DNA of 64,000 bases from a virus: the IMG/VR virus record IMGVR_UViG_3300046170_000478, positions 1 through 64,000 of that record; one strand, written 5' to 3'. Under the pieces are notes generated by a model that saw nothing but the letters and a program-made list of their open reading frames with translations, ran no database searches and was not told the DNA's origin. Positions 2 through 63,011 of the stretch are shown one piece after another (positions within the stretch are counted from its first letter, which is position 1; every line of letters starts with the position of its first letter). A program made the translations under genes and the position numbers.

Positions 2-1360
2 TATGGTATACATGTAGAAGGTGACAAGAACTATTTTGAAGGAAGCGTTGGTATAGGAACAACAAATCCATCCACTATATTCCACATCGACGATGATGCT
101 TCTACTGGGACAGGTCTTCTGCTAACTGGAGGTGGCCTTGGACAAGCACTAGCTACATTTACCCGTGATGTTGGTGGTAGTGGGACGATAGCTATAAATT
201 CTAGTGATTCACGCCCTCAAATTAAATTAGCGGCTTCATCTAATACTTTTGCGTTAGGCGTTAATGGCAGCACGTTTGAAATAGCAGATAATGATAAATT
301 AGGAACTAATCCACGATTAAGTATAACAAACACAGGAAATGTTGGTATAGGAACAACGGGTCCAAACGCTTTATTAAATGTCCAAGGAGATTCTGATCCA
401 ACAATTTTAATAAACGCTGTGACAGGAAACTCCGCAAATAGTGGTAAACTTGCTTTCGCGGAAACGGATGGTGGTGCTCATCAAGCGTGGATGAAGTATG
501 ATGGTTCTGCTAATAGATTAGAAATAGGAACAGCAGAAGTTTCTCAAGCTTTAGTAATAAAAAGAACTGACGGTAACGTTGGTATAGGAACAACTAATCC
601 ATCTCAAACTCTTCATGTTAAAGGTATCGGGATAATTGAAGATGCGAGTAGCACATCTTTCGGAACACTTCAATTTGGAACTGATACTTCGCGTTATGTA
701 AGAGGTAACTCTGCTGAAATACAATTTGGATCTACAATACAACAACTTCATTTCCAAAAAACAAACGGTCCTGCTCAAGTAGCTTCTAGCGCCGCAAATG
801 GAGTAACAGCTATACAATTACTAGCGAGAAATGTCCACACCTCTGCTAATCTTTTAGAGGTTGTAAATGGCAATGGTCAGACAGCAGATTTCGTTATTGA
901 TAGTGCAGGCAACGTTGGTATAGGAACAACAGCTAGTTTAGACAGCCTCTTGAATGTTGGCTCTCCTTCCGCAACTAATGTAAAAGTATCAAGGATAGCG
1001 GGTGACACTACAACCGTGTATCACTATGGAAGTTCAGCAGATGCAACATTAGAGTGGACTTGTGGTTCTTATTTCAACGCTGAAGTTGTGATAACGGCAA
1101 GCCAGACGAATGGTGGTACATACAACAACTTATACATAAGAGGTATATGGTCTAACAACCACACATCACATCATTGGGATGAACTAGAGCATGTTGGTAG
1201 TTTAACAGGCACAACTTTTACTATAACGAATGGACAGAATGGCTCTACAGCTGCTTCAGGTAGACTTACTCTTGGCGTGGATTATGTCAATGGTTCATTC
1301 GCCACTTTAAACATAAGAATTACAGATTTCTTCGGAACTCACGCATATACAATAACATAA
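2..1360 (+). CDS. Modular tail fibre/adhesin protein 1 (5'-partial)
   Basis: The frame of ORF 419..1360 is open back to position 2 (YGIHVEGDKNYFEGSVGIGTT...). It has four G(N/S)VGIGTT repeats separating variable beta-rich modules and a distinct C-terminal globular domain. Confidence 0.8.
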   Translation, partial: YGIHVEGDKNYFEGSVGIGTTNPSTIFHIDDDASTGTGLLLTGGGLGQALATFTRDVGGSGTIAINSSDSRPQIKLAASSNTFALGVNGSTFEIADNDKLGTNPRLSITNTGNVGIGTTGPNALLNVQGDSDPTILINAVTGNSANSGKLAFAETDGGAHQAWMKYDGSANRLEIGTAEVSQALVIKRTDGNVGIGTTNPSQTLHVKGIGIIEDASSTSFGTLQFGTDTSRYVRGNSAEIQFGSTIQQLHFQKTNGPAQVASSAANGVTAIQLLARNVHTSANLLEVVNGNGQTADFVIDSAGNVGIGTTASLDSLLNVGSPSATNVKVSRIAGDTTTVYHYGSSADATLEWTCGSYFNAEVVITASQTNGGTYNNLYIRGIWSNNHTSHHWDELEHVGSLTGTTFTITNGQNGSTAASGRLTLGVDYVNGSFATLNIRITDFFGTHAYTIT

Positions 1361-4300
1361 AAAAATGGCTATATTAACAACAACAGATCAGGGTCTCAAT
1401 TTTACGGGGGGGTCTTCTTTTATAAAGACAGGTACATCTACTGTCATGTCTTTCACTACCTCTGGTAATGTTGGTATAGGAACAACGAACCCATCGTCCA
1501 AATTATATATAGGAACTTATGGATCTTCTATTAATTCATCAACTCTACCGACAACTCCTGCAAACCATTTAATCACACTAACACCTCCATCAACTACAAA
1601 TTATTATGGTGGTGGTATTGGTTGGTCTGAAGGAACTAATGTCGCAGCAAGCATAAATGCGTATGACGCAGGTACTGGTGGAGCGTTAGGTCTTGTATTC
1701 TCTACAGGGAATAACACAACGCTTTCAGAAGCTTTACGTATCAATTCTTCTGGTAACGTTGGTATAGGAACAACTAATCCGAGTGCCAAGCTGGATATTG
1801 ATTCCGTTTTTACATTTAACACTTCAACTGATCTTTTAACTATAACCAATAATCAAAATACTGGTGGAATTAAATTATCTGGTGGAAATAGTAGAATATA
1901 TTTTGGTAATTATAGGGCTATTGAAGGCGATCAAGCTGGTGGCACATTATACATAGGTGAGGGCTATGGGGCGATATCTTTAATGGATGATGTCTATATA
2001 AATGGTCAGTTGACACTTAATGGCTACGTCCAAGCAGGAAATGTAAAATTTGAGAGGGGTGGAATCAATAATTCTTCATACACAATGCTTTGCACTGTTA
2101 ATGGTGATCGTCTTGCGTCTATTGTGAATATGACAATCACAGGAACGAGTGGCGGTGTTGTATTGTGTAGTTCTTTTGAGATAAACGTAAATCATTATCA
2201 AGACATACATGTTAGGTCTTTGAGCGGAGATTACACCGAAGCCACAATCAGAATCACAAGTAATAATAATGAAGATTATTCTATTGAATTAAAACACAAT
2301 GGTAGCACCACTACTACTGTGGAAGTTTGTGTTTTCCCACAGGCTGGTGAAACCATAACGCCCACAACAACAGACCCTAACTATACAGGCACTGAATACG
2401 TGCATCTAGCTACTGAAGGTATTAGATTTGGAGGAACTGATGGTGCAACTGAATCTTCTAATCTAGTAGTTGATGGTAAAGTTGGTATAGGAACAGCTAA
2501 TCCAGCGCAAAAACTCCATGTAAACGGAAATGTTGACATAGACAATGGAGGTATTCTATTGCAACAAGCTTACGGGATTAATTTTGGTGTTAGTGGGTAT
2601 GATATTGCGATGCCAACTACAACTAGGTTGGGTATTAAAACGGCAGGGTCCGAGAGTATATCTATATTAAACACTGGTAACGTTGGTATAGGAACAACTA
2701 GTCCAAGTGCGAAGTTACATATTAGCGAACAAGCTGAAAATAATTATTTCTTAAAATTACAAGGCACATATGGTTCAGGAAATACTTACGGATTTAAAAC
2801 AAATGGTGGGAACTCTGAAGTTTTAAGTTTATATGATTTAACGGCAAGTAATAGAATAGCGGTTTTCGGCAATACAGAAACATCATTTGCAACAGGTGGA
2901 AGCACTAGATTCTTAATTAATTCTGCTGGTAAAATACAAATTGGTAATAATATACCGATGTGGTCAGGATCTTATGGAGGTGCATTATTTTTAAAAGGTA
3001 ATAACGCGACCTCTGATAGATACGCTCAATTAACAGAGGTTGACTCTACTGGTGCTGCTATTAGCACTGGATTAGTTGTTCGTGCTGGCAACGTTGGTAT
3101 AGGAACAACTAGTCCTACAGCTAGTTTACATATAAATAAAAGCACTCCTTCAATAACTTTAGAAACCACAGCTAACTCAAACGATCCAATAATTAATTTA
3201 AAATCAAATGGAGCAATTACTGGTGAGGGCGCACAGATGTGGTATGACAATAGTATTGGTAGCCTTCACATCCAAACAACCTATCCAAATAATGCAGCAG
3301 ATATTGTTTTTCATACCGCAACTGGGGCTGATAAATCCACAGGGAATGTAAGAATGGTTATTGGCGGTGATGGCAACGTTGGTATAGGAACAACTAGTCC
3401 TGCTCAACCATTACATGTATTGAATGATAGTTCCGCAAACGTTCATGCTAAGATAAGAGTGCAAGGCGGGAGTACCTCTGGTTATGCTGATTTGGGAGTC
3501 CAATCAAATTATGTTAGGCTATTAGTAAACGATGTTCAGACAACAGCTTACTCTGGGGCTGTGCAATATAACTACATTAATGGAAACGTAGCTACAACTT
3601 TAACTTCAACAGGATTAGGCATTTCAACAACTAATCCACAAGCTGCTCTTCACGTAGCAGGATCTATAGGTAATTCACCAACAGGTGATGGTGTATTAAT
3701 GGGACTTAATAATAACTATGGACATATACAGCTAAACGGTTCCACTGGAAGTTACATAGATTTTTCTTCTTCAGGCGTAGATCGCAAAGGTAGAATACTT
3801 TACAATAATGCAGGTAATTATATGCAAATACAGACTAATGGGTCTGATAAAGTGCGTATTACCTCTTCAGGAAACGTTGGTATAGGAACAACTGGTCCAA
3901 GTCGCACATTACATATAGTTGATTCAGCAGGGCCAACTATAAAGTTTCAAAGAAGTAGCAGTGCAGATTTAGAATTTACATTTGGAACTGCTAACGCCTC
4001 AATAGCAAGTGCAGGAGAGATCCAGTTTAGAGCGAATGGAGGAACTACTAATAAGTTCATAATCAACAATTCGCAGATCCAATCAAATGCTAAGTTTCTC
4101 GTTAACACAAATTCAGGAATTGATGTCCATACAAGTGATAGTGGAAATATTTTATTAAGTGGCAACTCATCAGCCACAGGAAATCCTGATCAGTTTTTCC
4201 TTAAACACAATTTAGGCAATGTTGAGTTGGGGAATAGCAGAGGTAATATAAATATTACTAGTGGCAACGTTGGTATAGGAACAACTAGTCCAAGTAGACC

Positions 4301-6683
4301 TTTAGATGTCCAAAGTGCTGCTACATCTATTATTGCTAATTTTAAATACACGGGAGCAGCTTATTCATCTATTGATTTATCCAATACAGTAGGGTCTGCT
4401 AGGATATCCTCTTTAAATAATGATTTACTGCTTAGTCCTGCTGGCACAGAGCGTATGCGGATTAACTCCTCTGGCACAGTAGGGATAAACAACTCCTCAC
4501 TAAAAACAGTAAATACTTTTCAATCAAATTTATTTGTGGGCGAGACTTTATATATTGCGAATTATAATGTCGGAGGAAATCAGCAAGCTGTGTTCGGTTG
4601 TAATACTTATTACAATAGTGGGTATAAAGCAGTTACGGCTGCTACATCAGCCGCAATGATAAACATTGGTATTGGGGATTTCAACTTTAATACCGCTCCT
4701 ACAGTAGCAGCTGACGCTACACAAACGTTTACAACTCGAGTGGTTATTAAAAATAGCGGCAACGTTGGTATAGGAACAACTAGTCCGTCTAATAAACTTC
4801 ATGTTTATGAAGCTGTAAATAGAACTACTGCTATTGTTCAAAACAATAACCATACAGCAAGATTTGAAGCCTTTGGTAATGCTACAGCTATAGATACTAC
4901 AGCTAGTAATGGGGTTTTCATAAGGTATAATGGATCTAACAGGGTTCATTTTGAGGCAGGTGGAAACGTTGGTATAGGAACAGATAGTCCTGATCAAAAA
5001 TTAGAAGTTAATGGTAATGCCCATTTAAATTACTCTTTAATAGGCCGAGGGATTAGAAGCTCTAATCGTGGTGAGCTACACCTCAATGCTACAAGCACCA
5101 ATGATGTATCTGAAATATTCTTTGGTCATGGAGACGGTTACACGGAAGGTAACATAAGATGGGCTATCTCAGACAGAGGGTTTACTGATGGTAGATTAGA
5201 TCTATATAGAGGACCAGCATTTGGAGGTTTTTCAGCAATTCAAAGTTGGGATGAAAACGGCTACGTTGGTATAGGAACAACGAGTCCAGAAGCATTATTG
5301 GATATCGGTGGAGGAGATGGTACACCATTAGGTACACAGTTTAGAGCTGTTATTAAAGGAACAAGCGCAAGAACATTATATTTGGATTCTGATTCATCTG
5401 GAGCTTCTATGTGGTGGGGATCTGGCAATACCCCCCATTTTGCTATTGATTCTATAAGCGGTGGTGGAGCGGGTTTTTGGACATACAGTGGTGGGTGGAG
5501 TCAAAGATTAACTATTAACTCCTCTGGCAACGTTGGTATAGGAACAAATAATCCAGCTTCTAAATTAACAGTCGGGGGTAATGCTACAGGTTTTTCAACA
5601 GGAATGCAGGTGTGGCAATCTGGACAAACCGCTCTAAGTGGAGATGTAGGCGGCAAAGCTGCTACGTTTTTCGGGACATCAGGACTAAGCAATAGCTCTA
5701 TCGTAAATATATATTCTACTGATGCCTACACTACTCAACGTGGTGGTGAAATAGGTTTTGGAGGTAAGTATGCTTCAGCAGGTAATGTAGCGCAGTTTGC
5801 TAAAATAAGATCTTTTAAAACAAATGCAACCAACGGAGGGGTAAATTACGGTGGAGGTTTAGAGTTCTGGACAAGACCCAATGGGAGTGCAGCCGTACCT
5901 AGAATGCATATTAACGGCGACGGCAACGTTGGTATAGGAACAACGAGTCCTAATGCTATATTAGACATCAGCGATGCAACAAATGACAATTTAAGAATTG
6001 GTACTCGTGGTGGTAATATGAGTTTATTTTCTGTTACTGATGCTGGTGCTGCCTCTCCGTTAGCATTTGAAGGTTCTCAGTTTAATTTTATTACTGGCAA
6101 CGTTGGTATAGGAACAACGGGTCCTGCTACAAAACTACATGTTGTAGGAAGAGCAAGATTTGATGATACACAAATAAATGCAAAAGGTGTTTATGCTGAT
6201 TACTTTTCAAGTGGTCAGAGTTTAACTTTGAATAGTGGCGCATCTGCAAGTATATTATTTAAAATAGGTAATACTACTGCTTTAACTTTAGATTCATCAG
6301 AAAACGCAACCTTTGCAGGTTATACCTCTACCCCTAATTCTTATGCCCAGAATTTTTATGTAACATCTTCGGGGACAAATATTACCAATAGAATAGATAA
6401 TGATGGAACTCAGCTTTACATAACATATAGCGGAACAAGCAATCGTGCTTTAGAAATTAAAAATAGCAATGGCGATGCAACCTTTGCAGGTGATATTAGA
6501 TCAATCGGAACCATAGGAGTCACACAATCAGATGGTGATTATTTAGCTAAATTATATCAATCGTCTGCTGACGGGTTTTTAGAACTTTTCACTGGCCAAG
6601 CGACCCCTACATCTAGGACTAAAATAACATCGTATGGTGACTCTTATATTAATCCTAGTAACGGCAACGTTGGTATAGGAACA
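47..6683 (+). repeat. Dispersed in-frame 15-bp repeat GTTGGTATAGGAACA (19 exact copies)
   Basis: Copies start at 47, 341, 578, 914, 1470, 1758, 2481, 2682, 3093, 3378, 3876, 4269, 4764, 4968, 5265, 5532, 5928, 6102 and 6669. The extended 29-mer GGCAACGTTGGTATAGGAACAACTAGTCC is exact at 3087, 3372, 4263, 4758 and 6663. Confidence 0.95.
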
Positions 6684-7313
6684 ACTAGTCCAGCCTATAA
6701 ACTTGATGTCGCTGGCAGTGCTAGAATAGAAGGGGATTTAGATTTAGGGTCTGGTTTTAAAATAGCTAATTATGGCGGGAGTTATTGGCAAAGAATAAGA
6801 ACTGAAGATTCCTCTCTTTCTACAACTAACGCTTTTAACTTTGAAACACGAAACGGTTCAGGCTCTTTTATTGAACACATGGTTATCCGCAATGACGGTA
6901 ACGTTGGCATAGGAGTAACAAACCCTTCTTATAAACTCCAAGTTGGCGGTTCTATTGTAGGAACTTCTAAGAACTTTATAATCGACCACCCGACAAAAGA
7001 GGGTAAGAAATTACTGCACGGCTGTATTGAGGGTCCAGAAGCTGCTGTTTATTTCCGAGGGAAAAGCACTTCAAATATAATTGAAATGCCCGACTATTGG
7101 ATTGGTTTAGTTGATATCGACACAATGACGGTAGACATTACGCCTTGGGGACCAAATCAAGATATTTATGTAGAATCAATTGCAGATGATGGGGAAATAA
7201 CTATAGCTGCGAATACAGAAGAACCTCTTAATTATTTTTATGTCGTTTATGGAGAGCGTAAAGATATAGATAAGCTAGAGATAGAAATTGTAGACCCAGA
7301 ATATTCTGATTAA
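1365..7313 (+). CDS. Giant modular tail fibre/adhesin protein 2 (1982 aa)
   Basis: About 16 GNVGIGT-type repeats, Gly/Ser/Thr/Asn-rich. The C-terminal 'SKNFIIDHP...LLHGCIEGPE..VYFRG' domain is typical of phage fibre C-termini and may be chaperone-like (inference). Confidence 0.85.
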   Translation: MAILTTTDQGLNFTGGSSFIKTGTSTVMSFTTSGNVGIGTTNPSSKLYIGTYGSSINSSTLPTTPANHLITLTPPSTTNYYGGGIGWSEGTNVAASINAYDAGTGGALGLVFSTGNNTTLSEALRINSSGNVGIGTTNPSAKLDIDSVFTFNTSTDLLTITNNQNTGGIKLSGGNSRIYFGNYRAIEGDQAGGTLYIGEGYGAISLMDDVYINGQLTLNGYVQAGNVKFERGGINNSSYTMLCTVNGDRLASIVNMTITGTSGGVVLCSSFEINVNHYQDIHVRSLSGDYTEATIRITSNNNEDYSIELKHNGSTTTTVEVCVFPQAGETITPTTTDPNYTGTEYVHLATEGIRFGGTDGATESSNLVVDGKVGIGTANPAQKLHVNGNVDIDNGGILLQQAYGINFGVSGYDIAMPTTTRLGIKTAGSESISILNTGNVGIGTTSPSAKLHISEQAENNYFLKLQGTYGSGNTYGFKTNGGNSEVLSLYDLTASNRIAVFGNTETSFATGGSTRFLINSAGKIQIGNNIPMWSGSYGGALFLKGNNATSDRYAQLTEVDSTGAAISTGLVVRAGNVGIGTTSPTASLHINKSTPSITLETTANSNDPIINLKSNGAITGEGAQMWYDNSIGSLHIQTTYPNNAADIVFHTATGADKSTGNVRMVIGGDGNVGIGTTSPAQPLHVLNDSSANVHAKIRVQGGSTSGYADLGVQSNYVRLLVNDVQTTAYSGAVQYNYINGNVATTLTSTGLGISTTNPQAALHVAGSIGNSPTGDGVLMGLNNNYGHIQLNGSTGSYIDFSSSGVDRKGRILYNNAGNYMQIQTNGSDKVRITSSGNVGIGTTGPSRTLHIVDSAGPTIKFQRSSSADLEFTFGTANASIASAGEIQFRANGGTTNKFIINNSQIQSNAKFLVNTNSGIDVHTSDSGNILLSGNSSATGNPDQFFLKHNLGNVELGNSRGNINITSGNVGIGTTSPSRPLDVQSAATSIIANFKYTGAAYSSIDLSNTVGSARISSLNNDLLLSPAGTERMRINSSGTVGINNSSLKTVNTFQSNLFVGETLYIANYNVGGNQQAVFGCNTYYNSGYKAVTAATSAAMINIGIGDFNFNTAPTVAADATQTFTTRVVIKNSGNVGIGTTSPSNKLHVYEAVNRTTAIVQNNNHTARFEAFGNATAIDTTASNGVFIRYNGSNRVHFEAGGNVGIGTDSPDQKLEVNGNAHLNYSLIGRGIRSSNRGELHLNATSTNDVSEIFFGHGDGYTEGNIRWAISDRGFTDGRLDLYRGPAFGGFSAIQSWDENGYVGIGTTSPEALLDIGGGDGTPLGTQFRAVIKGTSARTLYLDSDSSGASMWWGSGNTPHFAIDSISGGGAGFWTYSGGWSQRLTINSSGNVGIGTNNPASKLTVGGNATGFSTGMQVWQSGQTALSGDVGGKAATFFGTSGLSNSSIVNIYSTDAYTTQRGGEIGFGGKYASAGNVAQFAKIRSFKTNATNGGVNYGGGLEFWTRPNGSAAVPRMHINGDGNVGIGTTSPNAILDISDATNDNLRIGTRGGNMSLFSVTDAGAASPLAFEGSQFNFITGNVGIGTTGPATKLHVVGRARFDDTQINAKGVYADYFSSGQSLTLNSGASASILFKIGNTTALTLDSSENATFAGYTSTPNSYAQNFYVTSSGTNITNRIDNDGTQLYITYSGTSNRALEIKNSNGDATFAGDIRSIGTIGVTQSDGDYLAKLYQSSADGFLELFTGQATPTSRTKITSYGDSYINPSNGNVGIGTTSPAYKLDVAGSARIEGDLDLGSGFKIANYGGSYWQRIRTEDSSLSTTNAFNFETRNGSGSFIEHMVIRNDGNVGIGVTNPSYKLQVGGSIVGTSKNFIIDHPTKEGKKLLHGCIEGPEAAVYFRGKSTSNIIEMPDYWIGLVDIDTMTVDITPWGPNQDIYVESIADDGEITIAANTEEPLNYFYVVYGERKDIDKLEIEIVDPEYSD

Positions 7314-7321
7314 CAAAATTC

Positions 7322-7350
7322 TTGATTTTAAAGCCCCTGCATTGTATAAT
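7322..7350 (+). promoter_or_regulatory. Sigma70-type promoter, leaderless configuration
   Basis: TTGATT-17-TATAAT, 6 nt upstream of ATG 7357. Confidence 0.7.
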
Positions 7351-7356
7351 GTCTTG

Positions 7357-8049
7357 ATGTTAAATTATGTATTTCTTATCCCTATAGATCATAGGGGAAT
7401 TCAAGGTAATTGTTTTGAACAGTATCTAAAACTCCAATCATGGTGTGACAAAAATAATTCAGCTATATTTACTTGTAGTGGATTATTCTTGAATTTTGCC
7501 AGAAATTTCTTAGCGACTGGGGGAGGTGGATTTCAAGACACTAGCCCTCCAGAAGCAGAGTGGCTTTTTTGGATTGACTCCGATGTTCAGTTTTCTATGG
7601 AGCATATAGAACAAATGATTAGAATCCCGAAAGACAAGAAATTTGTAACAGGTTGGTACAGATCTGATTATTCAGATAAGGCAATGGTAGGGAATTGGGA
7701 TGAAGATTTTTTTAGGAAAAACCTACATATGCCCTTTACCTCTGTTGAGTGGTTAGATAAATTGGGCAAAGAAAATCCAAATAAGCTGGTTGAGGTGGAC
7801 TGGTGTGGGTTTGGATTCACTAAGGTTCATAGATCCATTTACGAACAAATGGATTACCCATATTATCCATTGAGAACCGCAGACATTAAAGACTGTAATG
7901 ATCCCAACAAAGAGGGGGGAAAATTTGATGTGCATGATATGAGCTTTGAAGATGTTTCCTTCTGCAGGAATTTATACGATAAATTGAAAATCAAGCCTTT
8001 GGTTGTGCCGAGATTAAGAGTTGGGCATTTAAAATCCTTTTTTGTATAA
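7357..8049 (+). CDS. GT-A fold (GT2-like) glycosyltransferase
   Basis: WIDSD (DxD) motif, 'CGFGFTKVHRSIYE', 'SFEDVSFC'. Start moved from TTG 7342 to ATG 7357 on promoter spacing. Confidence 0.75.
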   Translation: MLNYVFLIPIDHRGIQGNCFEQYLKLQSWCDKNNSAIFTCSGLFLNFARNFLATGGGGFQDTSPPEAEWLFWIDSDVQFSMEHIEQMIRIPKDKKFVTGWYRSDYSDKAMVGNWDEDFFRKNLHMPFTSVEWLDKLGKENPNKLVEVDWCGFGFTKVHRSIYEQMDYPYYPLRTADIKDCNDPNKEGGKFDVHDMSFEDVSFCRNLYDKLKIKPLVVPRLRVGHLKSFFV

Positions 8050-8099
8050 TTTAGTGTAAGAATTAATAGATTAAACTAAATTTTAACATATAATTTATT

Positions 8100-8516
8100 A
8101 TGCCAGATTCCGATGATTCCGACTTGATTTTAGGTGATCCCGTTCCACGCGATGAGCCTTTTGTTGTTCCCGCTTCGCCAGAAGAGACTTATGACTCTGT
8201 ATGGCTCCGTAGTATCAATATCTATGCACCGAATAGTTCTGAAGCTGAGCCTCAGGGCGGCTCTCTTTCTATTGAGATGCTTCCTTATGATGGGTCAGAA
8301 GAAAAAGTCTTGATTACTGCAGATAACGAGGGAGTTGAATATATTAATGTTCCTAGTAGAGTTAATGGCCGCAAGCCTTTCTGGTCTTGTGTAGACGAGG
8401 TTCCAGAAGTAAAAGCTGCAATGGATGCTATTCTTGCTGCGATTCCCGCTTTACAAACTTGGGTTAATACACCTCCACCAGAGCCAGATCCACCAGAGCC
8501 GCCAGTAGGACCATAA
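8100..8516 (+). CDS. Hypothetical acidic protein with Pro-rich C-terminus
   Basis: 138-aa ORF preceded by GTGTAA (8054) and followed by a terminator. Confidence 0.7.
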   Translation: MPDSDDSDLILGDPVPRDEPFVVPASPEETYDSVWLRSINIYAPNSSEAEPQGGSLSIEMLPYDGSEEKVLITADNEGVEYINVPSRVNGRKPFWSCVDEVPEVKAAMDAILAAIPALQTWVNTPPPEPDPPEPPVGP

Positions 8517-15431: not shown

Positions 15432-15929
15432 ATGAACATATTCTTCCTTGATTCTGACCCAGAAGTTGCTGCCAAACAACAATGTGACAAACATTGTGTC
15501 AAGATGATTCTTGAATCTACTCAGCTTCTTTGTACCGCTTTCTGGATGCAAGATATAGAAGCTCCCTATAAGAAGACTCATTATAATCATCCATCTGCGA
15601 TTTGGGCGAGAGAATCAAAGGCTAATTTCCAATGGTTAGTCAAGCATACAGCGGCTTTATTTTGTGAGTATACGAAAAGATATGGCAAGGTCCACAAGAG
15701 TGCAGATACTTTTATTTGGATTCTAGAAAATAGACACAAGTTGAACTTTGATAAAGAAGATCTGACAGAGTTCGCGATTGCTATTGCTGAAAATCAGCGT
15801 TGTCGCCAACTGAAAAATTTTGACTCACTGAATGCGGTTGAGAAATATAGAGAATATTATTGCTATGATAAATCTTATATGGCAAAATGGAATTACAGTG
15901 CAACTCCAGACTGGTATAAAGTAAAATGA
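15432..15929 (+). CDS. Pyrimidine-dimer DNA glycosylase (endonuclease V-like)
   Basis: 'MNIFFLD...DKHCVKMILESTQLL...THYNHPSAIWARES..NF.WL'. Upstream TTGACT-16-TAAAAT-6-ATG. Confidence 0.8.
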   Translation: MNIFFLDSDPEVAAKQQCDKHCVKMILESTQLLCTAFWMQDIEAPYKKTHYNHPSAIWARESKANFQWLVKHTAALFCEYTKRYGKVHKSADTFIWILENRHKLNFDKEDLTEFAIAIAENQRCRQLKNFDSLNAVEKYREYYCYDKSYMAKWNYSATPDWYKVK

Positions 15930-16297
15930 AATACAAAGAACTTAGTGAATTAGTGATCGAGTGGGGTAGAGCCAAAGGGATTTTTGATGCATCTACTCCA
16001 TTACGTCAATTAGATAAGACGCAAGAAGAGCTTGAAGAGACGAAAGACGCTTTAAGTAAGTTAAATGCTTTTGATTACCAGCGAGACCTTATGGAAGACC
16101 TTGGAGTACCCGCTCCAAGTGAAGAGGATATACTCGCAGAAGTAAAAGATGGCATTGGAGATATGTTGGTGACAATTATATTGTTAGCTGAGATGGTTGA
16201 GCTTGATACTACCGATTGTCTCAATGAAGCTTACAATGTGATTAAATGTCGGACTGGCAAAATGATCGATGGACAATTTGTAAAAGATAAATCATGA
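15926..16297 (+). CDS. MazG-like NTP pyrophosphohydrolase
   Basis: 'KTQEELEE...VKDGIGDMLVT...CLNEAYNVIK.RTGKMIDGQFVK'. Confidence 0.8.
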   Translation: MKYKELSELVIEWGRAKGIFDASTPLRQLDKTQEELEETKDALSKLNAFDYQRDLMEDLGVPAPSEEDILAEVKDGIGDMLVTIILLAEMVELDTTDCLNEAYNVIKCRTGKMIDGQFVKDKS

Positions 16298-16422
16298 AAA
16301 AAGGAAACAATTACGAGAAGAAAAAGACAATTAAAAGGCGCGGAATCCATGCTAAAAGTGGAACATCTAAGCTTAAAACGTCAAAAAATTACAAAAAACC
16401 TTATAAGGGTCAAGGTAGATAA
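16294..16422 (+). CDS. Small basic protein (42 aa, C-terminal YKGQGR); not in the ORF track
   Basis: MKKGNNYEKKKTIKRRGIHAKSGTSKLKTSKNYKKPYKGQGR, with an ATGA overlap with the MazG gene. Confidence 0.7.
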   Translation: MKKGNNYEKKKTIKRRGIHAKSGTSKLKTSKNYKKPYKGQGR

Positions 16423-16460: not shown

Positions 16461-17807
16461 ATGGACAACTCAAAATTATCTAAGGTTATTGATTCCTTGG
16501 AGTCAGCTACGACAGAATTAAAATCATTGCTAGATACTCCTTCTACTACGGAGGCCGACAATGTTGGAGTCGGATCTTCCAGCGTGGGCGTTGGATCTTC
16601 CAGCGTGGGCGTTGGATCTTCCAGCGTGGGCGTTGGATCTTCCAGCGTGGGCGTTGGATCTTCCAGCGTGGGCGTTGGATCTTCCAGCGTGGGCGTTGGA
16701 TCTTCCAGCGTGGGCGTTGGATCTTCCAGCGTGGGCGTTGGGTCTTCAACAACCGACTCAAAATCTAGCCCTAGTTTTTTTTTGGATGGCTCACCCCCAT
16801 CTTGGCCGCGCTTAAAGTATTTAAGCGGAAGGATTGACGGTAACTTAACTAAGACGCGAACCTTGGCTGCAGATGATTTTGGGATTCTTCATTCTTTAGG
16901 TTATAAATCTGATTTCCATATCAAGACTGATGCAGTATTAGACAATATTACTAGGGAAACTACGGGATATAAGGGTTTTATTGGCAATGTCGAGGCTTCT
17001 GATGGTTATACTTATTTTTTACCAGCATATTCAAATTCTGTAGGTAAGTTAAAAAGGTCTACGGGAGAGATTACTTTAGAAAATAAATTTAGTTCCTGTC
17101 CTCAAATTAGATCTGGAGCAGAAGGAGCAAATGGTATTATTTATATGCCCTCTTATACTAAAACCTTAAAGATTTATACTTTAAATACTAAGACTGGGCA
17201 GATTGGATCATTTACTCCTCCTAAAATAGGATTCTTTAGTCATGTGTGGGGGGCCGCTTCAGATGACGAAGGTAATATTTATATGCCTCCAGCTTTAGGT
17301 AATAAAATTCTCAAAATAGACAAGAATGGCACGACCCTCTTGTTAGATGGAAAGCCTATTACATCTGGAGTTTCTGGGTTCAGTGTCAAATATGTCGGAG
17401 CAACATATGTTGAGAGTGTCCACAAGGTATTTTGTCTTCCGAGAACGGGCAAGAAGATTTTGATTATTAATTGTGCAGATGATTCTTATGAGGAGATTGA
17501 TTTACCAGCAGAATATTTGAAGGTAGCTAATAAAAATAAAAACTTTCACGGTTTCCTTGCTCCTGACGGATGGCTTTATAGTGCATTCTGGGGAGATACC
17601 AAGTGCTTTAGAGTGAATCCACTTACTTATGAGATCCAATGGAAAGATTATGAATATGAATTTATGGACGGCCAATCATCAGTAAAAGAGGGATCTGGAA
17701 TCATGAGTTTGGGAACGGGTTATTCTACTTGTGCTTTAGTTCGGGATAAAGACGTTTATCTGGGCCTTGCGGGAACCAGTAGGGCTGTAAAGCTTGAATT
17801 TGAATGA
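16461..17807 (+). CDS. Beta-propeller-like protein with an N-terminal (VGVGSSS)n linker
   Basis: Repeated 'G....DG.IY..P' blades (ASDGYTYFLP, GANGIIYMPS, DEGNIYMPP, APDGWLYS). Confidence 0.7.
   Translation: MDNSKLSKVIDSLESATTELKSLLDTPSTTEADNVGVGSSSVGVGSSSVGVGSSSVGVGSSSVGVGSSSVGVGSSSVGVGSSSVGVGSSSVGVGSSTTDSKSSPSFFLDGSPPSWPRLKYLSGRIDGNLTKTRTLAADDFGILHSLGYKSDFHIKTDAVLDNITRETTGYKGFIGNVEASDGYTYFLPAYSNSVGKLKRSTGEITLENKFSSCPQIRSGAEGANGIIYMPSYTKTLKIYTLNTKTGQIGSFTPPKIGFFSHVWGAASDDEGNIYMPPALGNKILKIDKNGTTLLLDGKPITSGVSGFSVKYVGATYVESVHKVFCLPRTGKKILIINCADDSYEEIDLPAEYLKVANKNKNFHGFLAPDGWLYSAFWGDTKCFRVNPLTYEIQWKDYEYEFMDGQSSVKEGSGIMSLGTGYSTCALVRDKDVYLGLAGTSRAVKLEFE
16572..16739 (+). repeat. Perfect 21-bp tandem repeat x8 (GGATCTTCCAGCGTGGGCGTT)
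   Basis: Eight identical units counted directly; in frame in the propeller gene. Confidence 0.95.
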
Positions 17808-60740: not shown

Positions 60741-62452
60741 CGTAACTCAAATTGTGTTTTATCTTTACCGTTATGGAGATAGTTTAAATGTTTTTGCGTC
60801 CCAATATTAGGTAAAAAAGCCATGTCAAAATACCCCTGATGATCTCCCTTCCCTTCTAGCATTAATAGGTTTTGAAGACTATCTTGATATGGAAGGATTT
60901 TATGAACGCTTGGATTATCCTCAATCATTTGATAAAATTGAGGTTTAGTAAATACATATATATTTTTTTCTGGATATAAATCTTTAAGATTTTTCATTAA
61001 AGAATTCAGGATGAGAATATCTCCAGCTGATTCAGGAAGAACAACGGCGATTCTATTAGAAATGCCTTCATCGCCTAATACATCTTCAATCCCTAAGGTC
61101 TTGCGAGAGTCTTCAGCCTCTTCTTCTTTAACTTCAGGTTTTTTTAGGTTTAAGAGGACTTTCTTCAGTTTTTCTACTGTAGACTGTACTGAAAACTCCT
61201 TCTTTACGTATTCCATACCCTTCTCCGCTAGAACCATAGTGTCAACTTCTGTCATCCCACGCACCATTTTCAACTTTGCAGCTATATCCTTCGGGCAAGT
61301 CGATGCTTTAATAAACTGAGTGCTAGGTTCTCTATATGAATTCCATTTTAGAGGGATTCCCCCTTGATGTTCATAGCACGAATCTGTTCCACAGGAATAT
61401 TCCGTGACTAAAGTCACTAGACCCGCTGCTTTAGCCTCTTGAATCGGCAACTCTTGTCCTCCGCTTGTAAATGGATGACAATAAACATCCATACAATTAT
61501 AGAGTTCGTTCAACTGTTTTTCATTAATTCCCTTCGCGCTATTTTTAGTTTTAAACGATTTTTCTTTTTTACAACGTGGGCAGTCCTTGTCTTCTCCTTG
61601 GTAAGGTGCAATGTGGTAATAATCACAAGCATGGCAAAGGTAAGTGGACAATACATCATCCTGATCGATATCCATTTCTTTAAGATACCTTGGTATATCC
61701 CAGCCATGAGATGTTTCCCCCCAATCTGTATGTAATAGTAATTTTGCGTTAACATTCGGGTTTTCTTCTTTGAAGATCTTAAATCCCTCTAAAAGATTGG
61801 GTACTGATTTCCTCAATTGGTTCTTAAAAACAAATCCTATTACATAACTTGAGTCTAAACCAAATCTCTCTCTTACCGCAGACCTATAATCCATTGGTTT
61901 GAAATGAGAGTAATCAACAGCCCCATGAATTGTCTCTACATTTTTATGTCCGAGCTTCTTCATTTCTTCCTCTGCAAATGATGCCCACACTAACATCTTA
62001 TCACAGTGAGGCTCCATTTGTTTTGCTTGATCCAGTATCGGGAGGCTATCTAAAGTCGTCCAAAGAACTTTGTTAATTTTATTCCACCAAGGTTTTTTAT
62101 GATATTCAGAAAAGGCCCAAATATCTTCAATCCCAAGATATACGTCTGGTTTAGATTTTTCTACAATTTCGTCTATCGTATAATAACCATATTGAGCCAT
62201 TCTTTCTTTTTGACCATTCCCTTGAATTGATCTTAAGACTGATGGATCACTGGGGTGAGTCCCATACGACTCCCAAGGGGTCAGTAAGTCTGCTCCAAAT
62301 TTTGCGCCGTTTCCAGCTTCAATAACTTCAATGTGTGGGTCATTATGTAATGCTAACAAAATATTTTTAGCATTTTTCCCAAACCCCGTAACAAGTCTGC
62401 TATGATTAGAGTGTATTAAGACCCTTAGTTTTTTAGAATGGGACTCCATCAT
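60737..62452 (-). CDS. GT4-like glycosyltransferase with zinc ribbon and a C-terminal GT9 N-domain
   Basis: 'TGFG', 'KNQLRKSVP', 'CHAC...CPRC', 'LYNCMDVYCHP...GQELPIQEAKAAG'; C-terminal 'AGDILILNSL..LK..YP...IEDNP.V'. Confidence 0.8.
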   Translation of the reverse strand: MMESHSKKLRVLIHSNHSRLVTGFGKNAKNILLALHNDPHIEVIEAGNGAKFGADLLTPWESYGTHPSDPSVLRSIQGNGQKERMAQYGYYTIDEIVEKSKPDVYLGIEDIWAFSEYHKKPWWNKINKVLWTTLDSLPILDQAKQMEPHCDKMLVWASFAEEEMKKLGHKNVETIHGAVDYSHFKPMDYRSAVRERFGLDSSYVIGFVFKNQLRKSVPNLLEGFKIFKEENPNVNAKLLLHTDWGETSHGWDIPRYLKEMDIDQDDVLSTYLCHACDYYHIAPYQGEDKDCPRCKKEKSFKTKNSAKGINEKQLNELYNCMDVYCHPFTSGGQELPIQEAKAAGLVTLVTEYSCGTDSCYEHQGGIPLKWNSYREPSTQFIKASTCPKDIAAKLKMVRGMTEVDTMVLAEKGMEYVKKEFSVQSTVEKLKKVLLNLKKPEVKEEEAEDSRKTLGIEDVLGDEGISNRIAVVLPESAGDILILNSLMKNLKDLYPEKNIYVFTKPQFYQMIEDNPSVHKILPYQDSLQNLLMLEGKGDHQGYFDMAFLPNIGTQKHLNYLHNGKDKTQFELR

Positions 62453-63011
62453 CTTCGTCTTCAGTTACCTCTTGTTTAGGCTCTTCGTATTGTTTTTTTT
62501 CGTATTTGGGTTTTTGATTCTGATAAGAGTCAGCTACAACGAAAGAGTCTAAAATATACTTTTTCATTAGTTCTCCGAGAACCTCTGTTTCTCCAGCTTC
62601 TAAGGGAAGCTTGAATGTCTGAGAAGAATTTCTCGTTACAGTGAACCCAAATGCAGGGGTTTCAAGCCATTCTTCCCCATCTTTATTCATAATTTTTCTT
62701 TTTTTATCCCAAGGCGTGAATTTAATGATCGTAGTGTCTTTATCCCGTCTATGGAAGGCTACGAAAGGAATTCTGGTTTTTAGTGAAGATAAAATTTCTC
62801 CAGCTTCATTAGCTGTTAACTTAATGGTTCCAGACTTTTCTGGATTTTTAGCATTTTCTTTAAAAGAACCGCTTTTGGTTTGATCATTCCAGCTGTGTTG
62901 TTGAATCATAGAGACGTACATCACTGCATTTCCCTTCTTGTCTTTTGCGATATCAAAACTGAATGCAGATCCTGCATTTTTAGAGTTTGGCTTATAAAGA
63001 GTAAATTTCAT
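62433..63011 (-). CDS. Putative single-stranded DNA-binding protein (PC4/Whirly-like)
   Basis: Acidic C-terminal tail 'EDEDDGVPF'; duplicated beta-sheet-plus-helix pattern (KLTANEAG / PLEAGETE). Confidence 0.6.
   Translation of the reverse strand: MKFTLYKPNSKNAGSAFSFDIAKDKKGNAVMYVSMIQQHSWNDQTKSGSFKENAKNPEKSGTIKLTANEAGEILSSLKTRIPFVAFHRRDKDTTIIKFTPWDKKRKIMNKDGEEWLETPAFGFTVTRNSSQTFKLPLEAGETEVLGELMKKYILDSFVVADSYQNQKPKYEKKQYEEPKQEVTEDEDDGVPF

Follow-up and report, generated by a model that had tools for sequence, protein, structure and literature searches.

Codon-locked junctions between modules in the tail-fibre genes of an uncultured marine phage

Two adjacent tail-fibre genes of an uncultured marine phage appear, from their sequences, to be a clear new example of a known process, the motif-guided swapping of host-recognition fibre parts. 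Their modules are joined at a DNA word of 15 nucleotides that is identical down to its silent positions, that is present in relatives found independently of it, and at which the boundaries of exchange with other genomes lie. The window that was analysed is a stretch of 64,000 nucleotides (positions 1 to 64,000 of IMG/VR virus record IMGVR_UViG_3300046170_000478, a 94-kb record estimated to be about 70% complete); coordinates refer to it unless stated otherwise, and all features of the fibre genes described below are on its + strand.

The first tail-fibre gene (2-1360), the 5′ end of which is cut by the start of the contig, contains four junctions and a C-terminal tip domain, and was identified by its orf and its matches to tail-fibre PHROGs 9942 and 18345. 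The second (1365-7313) encodes 1982 amino acids with 15 exact copies of the word, one VGIGV variant and degenerate junctions, and matches the same PHROGs (18345 at 4.6e-70, 9942 at 3.9e-69). No Pfam family was found for either fibre protein or for two downstream orfs (E 0.01), and the C-terminal 140 amino acids match only PHROGs of unknown function. The second gene product also matches the solved structure of Bd2133 (PDB 8OND_A, E 2.5e-8) over two aligned stretches, whose motifs map, by alignment only, to G683 and N814 of 8OND, which PMC10769870 gives as the starts of its two β-helix subdomains. Judging from this homologue, the junction peptide would start each β-helix subdomain. The same passages give a capping-loop consensus of V-G-G/N-pi-x-x-P-x-x-x-L and mention chimeric fibres whose tips vary (Caulton et al. 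2024, PMC10769870). The mosaic adhesive trimer (MAT) fibres of Bdellovibrio and the S74-type phage fibres (Bd2133, Bd3182, T5 pb1, the K1F endosialidase stalk; PMC10769870, passages on these proteins) are thus a close known group, the repeated SGN(V/L)G(I/L)GT...P...L motif aligning with the starts of the two β-helix subdomains of Bd2133; those passages, however, concern the protein architecture of a bacterial predator, and DNA-level identity and crossover points do not figure in them. The S74 intramolecular chaperone (SDxxxK) was not detected in the fibre of the window (no Pfam family, E 0.01), which is comparable in this respect to the non-S74 subgroup.

Every VGIGT peptide in the two orfs is spelled GTTGGTATAGGAACA, one of 768 possible synonymous spellings (4x4x3x4x4). 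The 19 exact copies lie at 47-61, 341-355, 578-592, 914-928, 1470-1484, 1758-1772, 2481-2495, 2682-2696, 3093-3107, 3378-3392, 3876-3890, 4269-4283, 4764-4778, 4968-4982, 5265-5279, 5532-5546, 5928-5942, 6102-6116 and 6669-6683; the rest of the 94-kb record has no copy, and none would be expected by chance. A twentieth junction (6903-6917), 5′ of the conserved C-terminal domain, encodes VGIGV as GTTGGCATAGGAGTA. The spacing between 15-mers is always a multiple of three nucleotides, with the sole exception of the 556 that separate the last copy of the first gene (914) from the first copy of the second gene (1470) and span the gene boundary. A 29-mer, GGCAACGTTGGTATAGGAACAACTAGTCC, is common to five copies, and uninterrupted identity between junctions extends over 16-31 nucleotides, comprising AAC-GTTGGTATAGGAACA and partly conserved flanks. 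A recount thus agrees with the initial annotation on the 19 identical 15-mers, the 768 spellings and the five copies of the 29-mer.

When codon usage was taken from the fibre genes with the motifs removed, the predicted probability of this spelling was 0.0105 per motif, or about 2.5e-38 for 19 out of 19. Invariant residues that flank the motif have mixed codons: Gly-2 is GGA4/GGT5/GGC10 (the free codon use of this neighbouring glycine had been remarked before), Thr+5 is ACA2/ACG5/ACT9, Pro+7 is CCA11/CCG2/CCT5, and Leu+11 has six different codons. Codon bias as the cause of the identity is excluded by the probability per motif together with the mixed flanking codons, a check that the initial annotation had proposed, and plain codon bias also because the two glycines inside the motif prefer different codons (GGT for the first, GGA for the second). 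Recent tandem duplication is excluded as well, since the module interiors are unrelated to one another, as had been claimed (the only pair found by BLASTP is weak, E 0.007), no tandem arrays were found in the fibre region, and duplication inside a locus affects just one module family. The identity of the 15-mers is therefore a property of the DNA, beyond anything that codon bias or recent duplication would produce. There are no inverted repeats, and the junction is the only repeat family. The imperfect dyad that had been noticed in the 15-mer is real (five of seven symmetric pairs), but given the amino acids and the codon usage it would arise by chance in about 10% of cases, and it is not significant as a sign of a binding site (P ~0.10).

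Comparison with relatives (viral, metagenome and MAG contigs, all of them metagenome assemblies) revealed that single modules of the window recur elsewhere at 87-100% nucleotide identity, which ends within a few bases of the 15-mer. Positions 26-594 are 100% identical to locus L020, and the two sequences are unrelated directly after the 15-mer at 578 (the first mismatch is at 595, and there is no relationship from about 602); the 15-mer at 47 is the left end of the module common to L020 and, at 87% identity, L122. The module that starts at 341 is shared in the same bounded way with L009 (92%). Positions 3093-3392, from the 15-mer at 3093 to the one at 3378, match L009 at 98.9% identity, and the sequences to the left and right of this stretch are unrelated. 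The 15-mer at 2481 is the left end of a module shared with L156 (2481-2681, 87.6%), and the 15-mer at 2682 is the right end of a module common to L156 and L163; the 15-mers at 4968 and 5265 are the left and right ends of a module shared with L179 (93.9% over 4961-5287). The 15-mer at 3876 is the right end of a segment common to L170, L172 and L174.

When the ends of all matches of at least 85% identity were pooled over all fetched fibre loci (n=186), 51% lay within 10 nucleotides of a junction motif versus 8.9% of random positions, and 63% versus 13.9% lay within 20 nucleotides; about one third were away from any motif. The consensus word was present in both partners at 29 of 54 match boundaries, versus 18 ± 3 expected for random motif pairs. 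These boundaries support the proposal that the 15-mer, together with a few conserved flanking bases, is where module exchange between genomes starts and ends. Some recent exchanges end elsewhere. The segment 3626-3899, shared with L170 (98.2%), has its left end at a degenerate LGIST junction (TTAGGCATTTCAACA, 3615-3629), where L170 has the exact 15-mer; the left end (2916) of a segment shared with L148 (93.8%) lies just 5′ of a degenerate junction, KIQIG within INSAGKIQIGN (2931-2945); and a sub-module shared with L148 (96.9%) is bounded on the left and right by two copies, 171 nucleotides apart, of a second kind of joint, GCAACCTTTGCAGGT (ATFAG, at 6306-6320 and 6477-6491). With ends of exchange at degenerate junctions and at the ATFAG repeat too, exact identity of the 15-mer is not obligatory.

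A map of the modules shows single modules shared among loci that have different neighbours. In L163 a module like M07 is joined directly to one like M19, the module that starts in the window at 6669, so that L163 has 11 modules fewer than the window. No pair of modules in reversed order was found among 37 shared module families, and the data therefore agree with modules being replaced, gained and lost, and not with free shuffling. In the contigs of public sequencing runs over the fibre region, no variants rearranged within a genome were seen. Insertion, deletion and exchange had been proposed both within and between genomes, and it is the part between genomes, with the module number of L163, that is upheld. 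One contig, from run X17, consists of 754 nucleotides of window sequence, which carry the module upstream of the junction at 2481, and, beyond that junction, 69 nucleotides of different sequence; alone among the public-run contigs it looks like a true alternative neighbour. Other joints in such contigs, considered as deletion or duplication variants, were rejected: they have short sides (21-41 nucleotides), are located at motifs, and probably belong to other fibres that match the junction only. Contig breaks at motifs are in part trivial because six junctions share 30-31 nucleotides at k = 31.

The word is not confined to this phage. L170 and L172, which were found by module-interior peptides independently of the 15-mer, contain it exactly at 19 of 31 and 19 of 25 junctions, respectively, against about 0.01 expected, and their flanks are mixed. 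In L009, 13 of 14 VGIGT junctions are exact, and there is one LGIGT junction. Contigs with GC fractions of 0.30-0.45 carry the same word. Other phages (L036, L085, L048, L098 and L173) encode the same peptide with varied codons, so that the spelling is not a requirement of the protein; L027 and L121 have dominant variants of their own. Across many phages there is a weaker preference for the codons GTT, GGT, ATA, GGA and ACA (.73,.65,.65,.66 and.57, against backgrounds of.47,.45,.38,.38 and.41). A keyword search of the literature found no earlier account of codon-locked fibre junctions, and searches for the peptide strings returned unrelated papers only.

The best overall explanation, and probably the correct one, is that a standard word, kept by the traffic of exchange, marks where fibre modules recombine between phages. 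The two genes are predicted to encode long trimeric tail fibres of the β-helix type, made of structurally autonomous modules, each of which would start with the loop peptide (G)NVGIGT(TSP...L) encoded by one standard DNA word in this phage and in a wide set of marine phages. Because the word is the only homology between otherwise unrelated modules, recombination between co-infecting phages would resolve at it, and because every crossover at the word is in frame and at a subdomain boundary, the resulting chimeras would be likely to fold; the outcome would be the replacement, gain or loss of whole modules. The uniform spelling would most likely be maintained by the traffic itself, in that the common spelling would be found at recently exchanged joints, the modules able to move would be those whose ends are standard, and joints no longer exchanging would drift; conversion among copies may contribute.

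The route is most likely to be general or short-homology recombination by the phage's own UvsX-like recombinase (74731-75870 of the 94-kb record) and host functions. Identity blocks of 16-31 nucleotides are short for RecA-type strand exchange, so that the actual mechanism may be annealing or template switching. The Rad52-like protein of the initial annotation could not be confirmed: there is no Pfam match to the Rad52 family (PF04098), the orf at 62433-63011 has no PHROG match, and the recombinase that is present is UvsX-like. The 94-kb record contains no recognizable tyrosine recombinase (PF00589), serine recombinase (PF00239), reverse transcriptase (PF00078), HNH nuclease or GIY-YIG nuclease; many of its orfs are without a family. 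Since the record is about 70% complete, the absence of a dedicated enzyme is only provisional.

A stronger reading, in which the 15-18-mer is a standard and directly selected recombination signal of a large marine phage pool, a universal linker possibly recognised by a putative protein, is conceivable but doubtful. If it were true, unrelated phages would trade fibre domains in frame, and the evolvability of the fibre would itself be a selected trait. Purifying selection on the 15-mer gave no direct sign, as the codons of motifs that bound shared modules vary at least as often as interior ones (37 differences observed versus 26.5 ± 4.7 expected from interior synonymous codons), but crossovers take place at these very motifs, which confounds the test; the corresponding test on motifs inside long collinear matches is biased by the choice of loci and does not hold for those retrieved with the 15-mer.

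It is improbable that concerted evolution would suffice, with short-patch gene conversion among the copies within each genome making the motif uniform as a neutral side effect. The junction would then be special only as the sole homology, and joins would be seen there since chimeras at domain boundaries survive. Such an origin accords with the lineage-specific homogeneity of L027 and L121, with the lack of detectable purifying selection on orthologous junction codons, and with the position of the motif at the opening of a structural subdomain, where folding selection would also place surviving joins. However, the word that dominates many unrelated contigs is the same rather than genome-specific, the boundaries fall within a few bases of it instead of being spread over the 40-50 nucleotides of the conserved peptide region, and the two partners at a boundary both have the consensus word in more cases than randomly paired motifs would give.

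Rather less probable still is an active signal, recognised as GTTGGTATAGGAAC by a phage or host protein, be it a nickase, a homing-type nuclease, a recombination mediator or a site-specific recombinase that starts the exchange, which would imply a programmed cassette exchanger and direct selection of the 15-mer as a binding site. The sharp block of 15-18 perfectly conserved nucleotides with free third positions directly outside it, the occurrence of the same word in contigs with GC fractions from 0.30 to 0.45, and the partial twofold symmetry GTT..TATA..AAC would suit such a signal. Against it are the enzyme classes missing from the 94 kb (tyrosine and serine recombinases, HNH, GIY-YIG, reverse transcriptase), the likelihood of the symmetry by chance, the exchanges whose ends lie at degenerate junctions or an unrelated repeat, the decay of the spelling in many phages that keep the peptide, and the direct orientation of all copies, from which a simple recombinase would mostly produce deletions.

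A constraint on translation or RNA, by which GTT-GGT-ATA-GGA-ACA would be selected for decoding speed, a folding pause or an mRNA feature with recombination incidental, is very unlikely; the weaker position-specific codon preference across many phages would fit, as would the TAGGAA stretch, which resembles a Shine-Dalgarno-like pause site, but the same kind of fibre has scattered codons in L036, L085, L048, L098 and L173, the neighbouring invariant residues have no codon preference, and the excess of the exact word at exchange boundaries would be left unexplained. An assembly artefact, with the array or the mosaics arising as chimeras at a repeated word, is scarcely credible even though all the sequences are metagenome assemblies, six junctions share 30-31 nucleotides with another junction and the contig begins inside the first gene, because the word is shorter than usual assembly k-mers, dozens of independent assemblies show the same architecture, contigs from four independent runs cover 30 of 30 bins of the region with 0-5 mismatches among the pieces listed (a third to a half of the compared records being at least 99% alike), some run contigs bridge the junctions at 1470, 2481, 4968, 5265, 5532 and 5928, the frame of 1982 codons stays open, and where a relative has other sequence in place of a window module, that sequence does not occur in the window.

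The T-even phages offer the closest known parallel: in them recombination occurs at conserved motifs, the His boxes of gp37 and the glycine-rich motifs of gp38, and the exchange points of chimeras, whether natural or made in the laboratory, fall inside these motifs or close to them (Tetart et al. 1996/1998 as cited in Trojet et al. 2011, PMC3157838, passages on these motifs). As in those descriptions, variable segments of fibre genes lie between short conserved motifs; the window has 19 + 1 motifs between unrelated interiors in genes that match tail-fibre PHROGs, and natural chimeras have their exchange points in the motifs or beside them. A UvsX-type recombinase is a further common point. The motif and the fold differ (a VGIGT loop that opens β-helix subdomains), the joints number 19 in two genes, where the T-even genes have a handful, and whole domains of 58-241 residues are exchanged instead of short hypervariable loops; a further difference, as far as the T-even descriptions extend, is that the joint is identical at silent sites and is a standard word common to many marine phages. 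By this analogy, the phenomenon appears to be a codon-locked form of T-even motif-guided exchange and no new kind of system.

In the modular theory (Susskind and Botstein; lambdoid boundary sequences), short linker homologies between unrelated modules are said to be sites of homologous exchange; those linkers lie between genes, whereas the junctions described here are internal to an open reading frame, which they preserve, and code for a structural element. Shufflons (Rci, sfx) and invertase systems (Gin/Cin/Min) resemble the fibre genes in that short repeats bound alternative C-terminal adhesin segments (fibre or pilin tips), but their repeats are inverted, a dedicated recombinase acts on them and switching takes place in one genome; here the copies are direct, neither recombinase class was found in the 94-kb record, and exchange is between genomes. 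Diversity-generating retroelements (DGRs) also diversify phage receptor-binding proteins, by adenine-directed point changes; here variation is by whole modules, with neither a reverse transcriptase nor a template/variable repeat pair. The claim that the array is neither a DGR nor a shufflon was therefore sustained.

In tailed phages, host range depends largely on the tips and side domains of the fibres, and module exchange of this kind may alter it. In a very long fibre, the DNA of the joints follows one standard that many ocean phages share, and actual exchanges end at those joints, which offers a concrete and testable rule by which natural phage populations would rebuild host-recognition proteins by whole domains. 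The starts of β-helix subdomains would be safe in-frame cut points at which chimeric fibres could be made or studied with phage-host pairs in the laboratory. An evolutionary question is also raised, namely whether silent-site identity is selected for exchangeability or is a by-product of exchange. Sequence of the fibre region was detected in 19 marine runs belonging to 16 studies; no close match was found among GenBank phages, the only one being of 110 nucleotides between the C-terminal domain and Synechococcus phage DSL-LC02, and a hint of the host, from binning only, points to Flavobacteriaceae. Words of this kind break short-read assemblies inside fibre genes, as at the start of this contig.

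The two tail-fibre genes are both transcribed from the + strand, gene 1 at 2-1360 (the window opens inside it) and gene 2 at 1365-7313 (1982 codons). Both proteins match PHROGs 18345 and 9942 (tail fibre), while a Pfam search found no family for either. The window covers the opening 64 kb of a linear IMG/VR record (94 kb, estimated completeness 70%), and its remainder contains a tape-measure gene and other virion genes. At least half of the words sampled from the fibre region were found in each of 19 marine or viral-metagenome runs (16 studies); therefore the phage is widespread in the ocean. On the 3′ side of the fibre genes, two small orfs at 7342-8516, encoding 235 aa (PHROG 1574, unknown function) and 138 aa (no family), have 72-83% nucleotide identity in every relative with a shared fibre C-terminus (contigs L163-L172), and may serve in fibre assembly or as accessory genes.

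The two fibre genes together contain all 19 copies of the junction word GTTGGTATAGGAACA (core GTTGGTAT), each on the + strand; the chance expectation in the 94-kb record is 0. It spells every VGIGT of both proteins; the 20th junction is VGIGV at 6903, spelled GTTGGCATAGGAGTA. By the codon usage of the same fibre genes with the motifs removed, the probability of this spelling is 0.0105 per VGIGT, or about 2.5e-38 for 19 of 19. The five motif codons are invariant, but neighbouring invariant residues of the window junctions have mixed codons: GGA/GGT/GGC 4/5/10 for Gly at -2, ACA/ACG/ACT 2/5/9 for Thr at +5, CCA/CCG/CCT 11/2/5 for Pro at +7, and six codons in use for Leu at +11. The Asn codon at -1 is AAC in 14 of 16 window junctions, 18 of 22 in contig L170 and 15 of 18 in contig L172, the common Asn codon of the pooled background being AAT (76%); the conserved word is really AAC plus the 15-mer. 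The initial annotation reported 19 identical 15-mers, five of them within an identical 29-mer, between unrelated module interiors, and this held throughout: exact identity between junction pairs spans 16-31 nt, and the interiors are unrelated by BLASTP. Neither tandem arrays nor inverted repeats were found in the fibre locus. The partial dyad attributed to the word is real, but would arise by chance about one time in ten and does not justify the weight given to it.

Among other phages, L009, a relative recognized by protein similarity, has 13 exact words among 14 VGIGT junctions and one LGIGT junction, and L010 has none in seven. Viral contigs scanned for the 15-mer gave at least 120 stretches, and all 157 matches listed encode VGIGT in frame; a separate scan for two copies 267-297 nt apart gave 23 stretches, including L148, L145, L144, L156 and L158. 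The word is exact in 10 of 11 VGIGT of L148 in orf context (11 of 12 counting all six frames) and in 10 of 13 of L145, at a GC content of 0.44. Contigs L170 and L172, which were found via module-interior peptides and hence without selection for the word, have 19 of 31 and 19 of 25 exact junctions, versus about 0.01 expected, with mixed flanking codons. Other contigs encode the same peptide with scattered codons (L036, L085, L048, L098, L014, L113, L173) or dominant variants of their own (L027, L121); therefore this spelling is not required by the protein. Uniformity at the DNA level characterizes a large set of phages but not all of them. In an uncultured Flavobacteriaceae MAG, three contigs (L177, L179, L184; exact 15-mers 4/5, 8/12 and 1/1) have modules in common with the window and a 71% match to 15926-16415; the binning of a related phage with this genome hints weakly at the host. 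Other genome matches to a 20-mer are also mostly from Bacteroidota, with two from Bdellovibrionales.

Alignment of fibre loci clearly shows exchange of modules at the junction word. Contig L020 is 100% identical to 26-594 of the window, with the first mismatch at 595, three bases past the 15-mer at 578-592, and is unrelated from about 602. L009 (8067-8366) is 98.9% identical to 3093-3392, from AAC plus 15-mer to one base past the next 15-mer, with unrelated sequence on either side. The modules at 341 (92% to L009 at 6555) and 47 (87% to contig L122) have the same sharp edges; further single modules in common are 2481-2681 (87.6% to L156) and 4961-5287 (93.9% to the MAG contig L179). Homologues of the modules at 341 and 3093, which belong to separate genes in the window, share one orf in L009. 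Pooling every fibre locus retrieved gave 186 ends of matches with identity ≥85% and length ≥120 nt; 51% of these ends lay no more than 10 nt from a junction motif and 63% no more than 20 nt, versus 8.9% and 13.9% for random positions. At 54 unique boundaries, the consensus word was present in both partners 29 times, versus 18 ± 3 for random motif pairs drawn from the same loci. A module map contained 37 families common to several loci, mostly single modules with differing neighbours, and within-locus duplication in only one family. In L163, a relative whose downstream genes are 76% identical, a module like that at 2481 is joined straight to one like that at 6669, with eleven modules fewer than in the window. 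Just past this junction (at about 330), the fibre orf of L163 has an in-frame stop (…HVEGNI*LTSGFEIG…), which may reflect a genuine interruption, a sequencing error or a gene boundary.

The data show replacement, gain and loss rather than free permutation, since no reversed order of shared module pairs was found and the partial orders of all loci are mutually consistent. The observation of the initial annotation was confirmed and its interpretation partly supported: exchange between genomes at the 15-mer is borne out by the sharp identity edges and the enrichment of match ends at motifs, but free shuffling of modules into different orders is not supported by the shared modules. About one third of match ends are away from any VGIGT-type motif. 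A second direct repeat of 15 nt, also exact, GCAACCTTTGCAGGT (encoding ATFAG; 6306-6320 and 6477-6491, 171 nt apart), brackets a sub-module (6303-6494) that is 96.9% identical to L148, and looks like the same principle at a different joint. The segment at 2916-3107 opens at a degenerate junction, INSAGKIQIGN, and the start junction of 3626-3899 (98.2% to L170) is degenerate in the window (LGIST) and canonical in L170. With match ends at such sites, exchange favours the exact word but does not depend on it, and as a general rule takes place at short homologies at module starts. Another degenerate junction, INSSGTVGI at 4461-4487 (GTAGGGATA), inside the module starting at 4269, suggests a decayed joint and fusion of two former modules.

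The fibre matches 8OND (E 2.5e-8), the structure of the Bdellovibrio homologue Bd2133, with two aligned motifs, SGNLGLGT at G683 and NGNMVITGT at N814. PMC10769870 places the starts of the two beta-helix subdomains at exactly these residues, and describes capping loops of related consensus in MAT-type Bdellovibrio and S74-type phage fibres. With the motif at subdomain starts, a crossover within it joins whole subdomains in frame, which would explain the viability of such chimeras; it also offers an alternative reason for the position of surviving joins at the motif.

The mechanism is best read as recombination, homologous or at short homology, between co-infecting relatives, and would be resolved within the 16-31-nt identity block. 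A UvsX-like RecA-family recombinase (PHROG 97, 2.7e-32) is encoded outside the window at 74731-75870 of the full record (1426-2565 of L162), adjoining a nucleotide-sugar epimerase gene. In the 94 kb searched, no tyrosine or serine recombinase, HNH or GIY-YIG nuclease, reverse transcriptase or Rad52-family protein was found. The favoured explanation of uniformity is that exchange traffic itself maintains the word: recently formed joints would carry the common word, mobile modules would be those with standard ends, and conversion may contribute. Direct selection on the word, or a protein that recognizes it, is less likely. The codons of motifs bounding shared modules differ 37 times, versus 26.5 ± 4.7 expected from interior silent codons, which argues against strong purifying selection, although this test is confounded in that these motifs are the crossover points; the corresponding test of internal motifs is biased by ascertainment. 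tRNA abundance does not account for GGT as the first motif glycine and GGA as the second.

The nearest known parallel lies in the T-even phages, whose fibre and adhesin genes recombine within or close to conserved motifs (Tetart 1996/1998, cited in PMC3157838). The logic is common to both, but the window has another motif and another fold, and differs in scale (19 joints; domain lengths of 58-241 residues), in the identity of the joints at silent sites, and in a single standard word that many marine phages use. A literature search found nothing describing a VGIGT-type peptide or codon-locked fibre junctions. The proposed distinction from invertase shufflons and DGRs was upheld: the word occurs in direct copies only, without inverted repeats or a tyrosine or serine recombinase in the 94 kb to make a shufflon, and without a reverse transcriptase to make a DGR. 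Elsewhere in the window, an orf of unknown function (16461-17807, 448 aa) contains, at 16563-16745, about nine tandem, nucleotide-identical copies of a 21-nt unit, TCCAGCGTGGGCGTTGGATCT, that encodes SSSVGVG.
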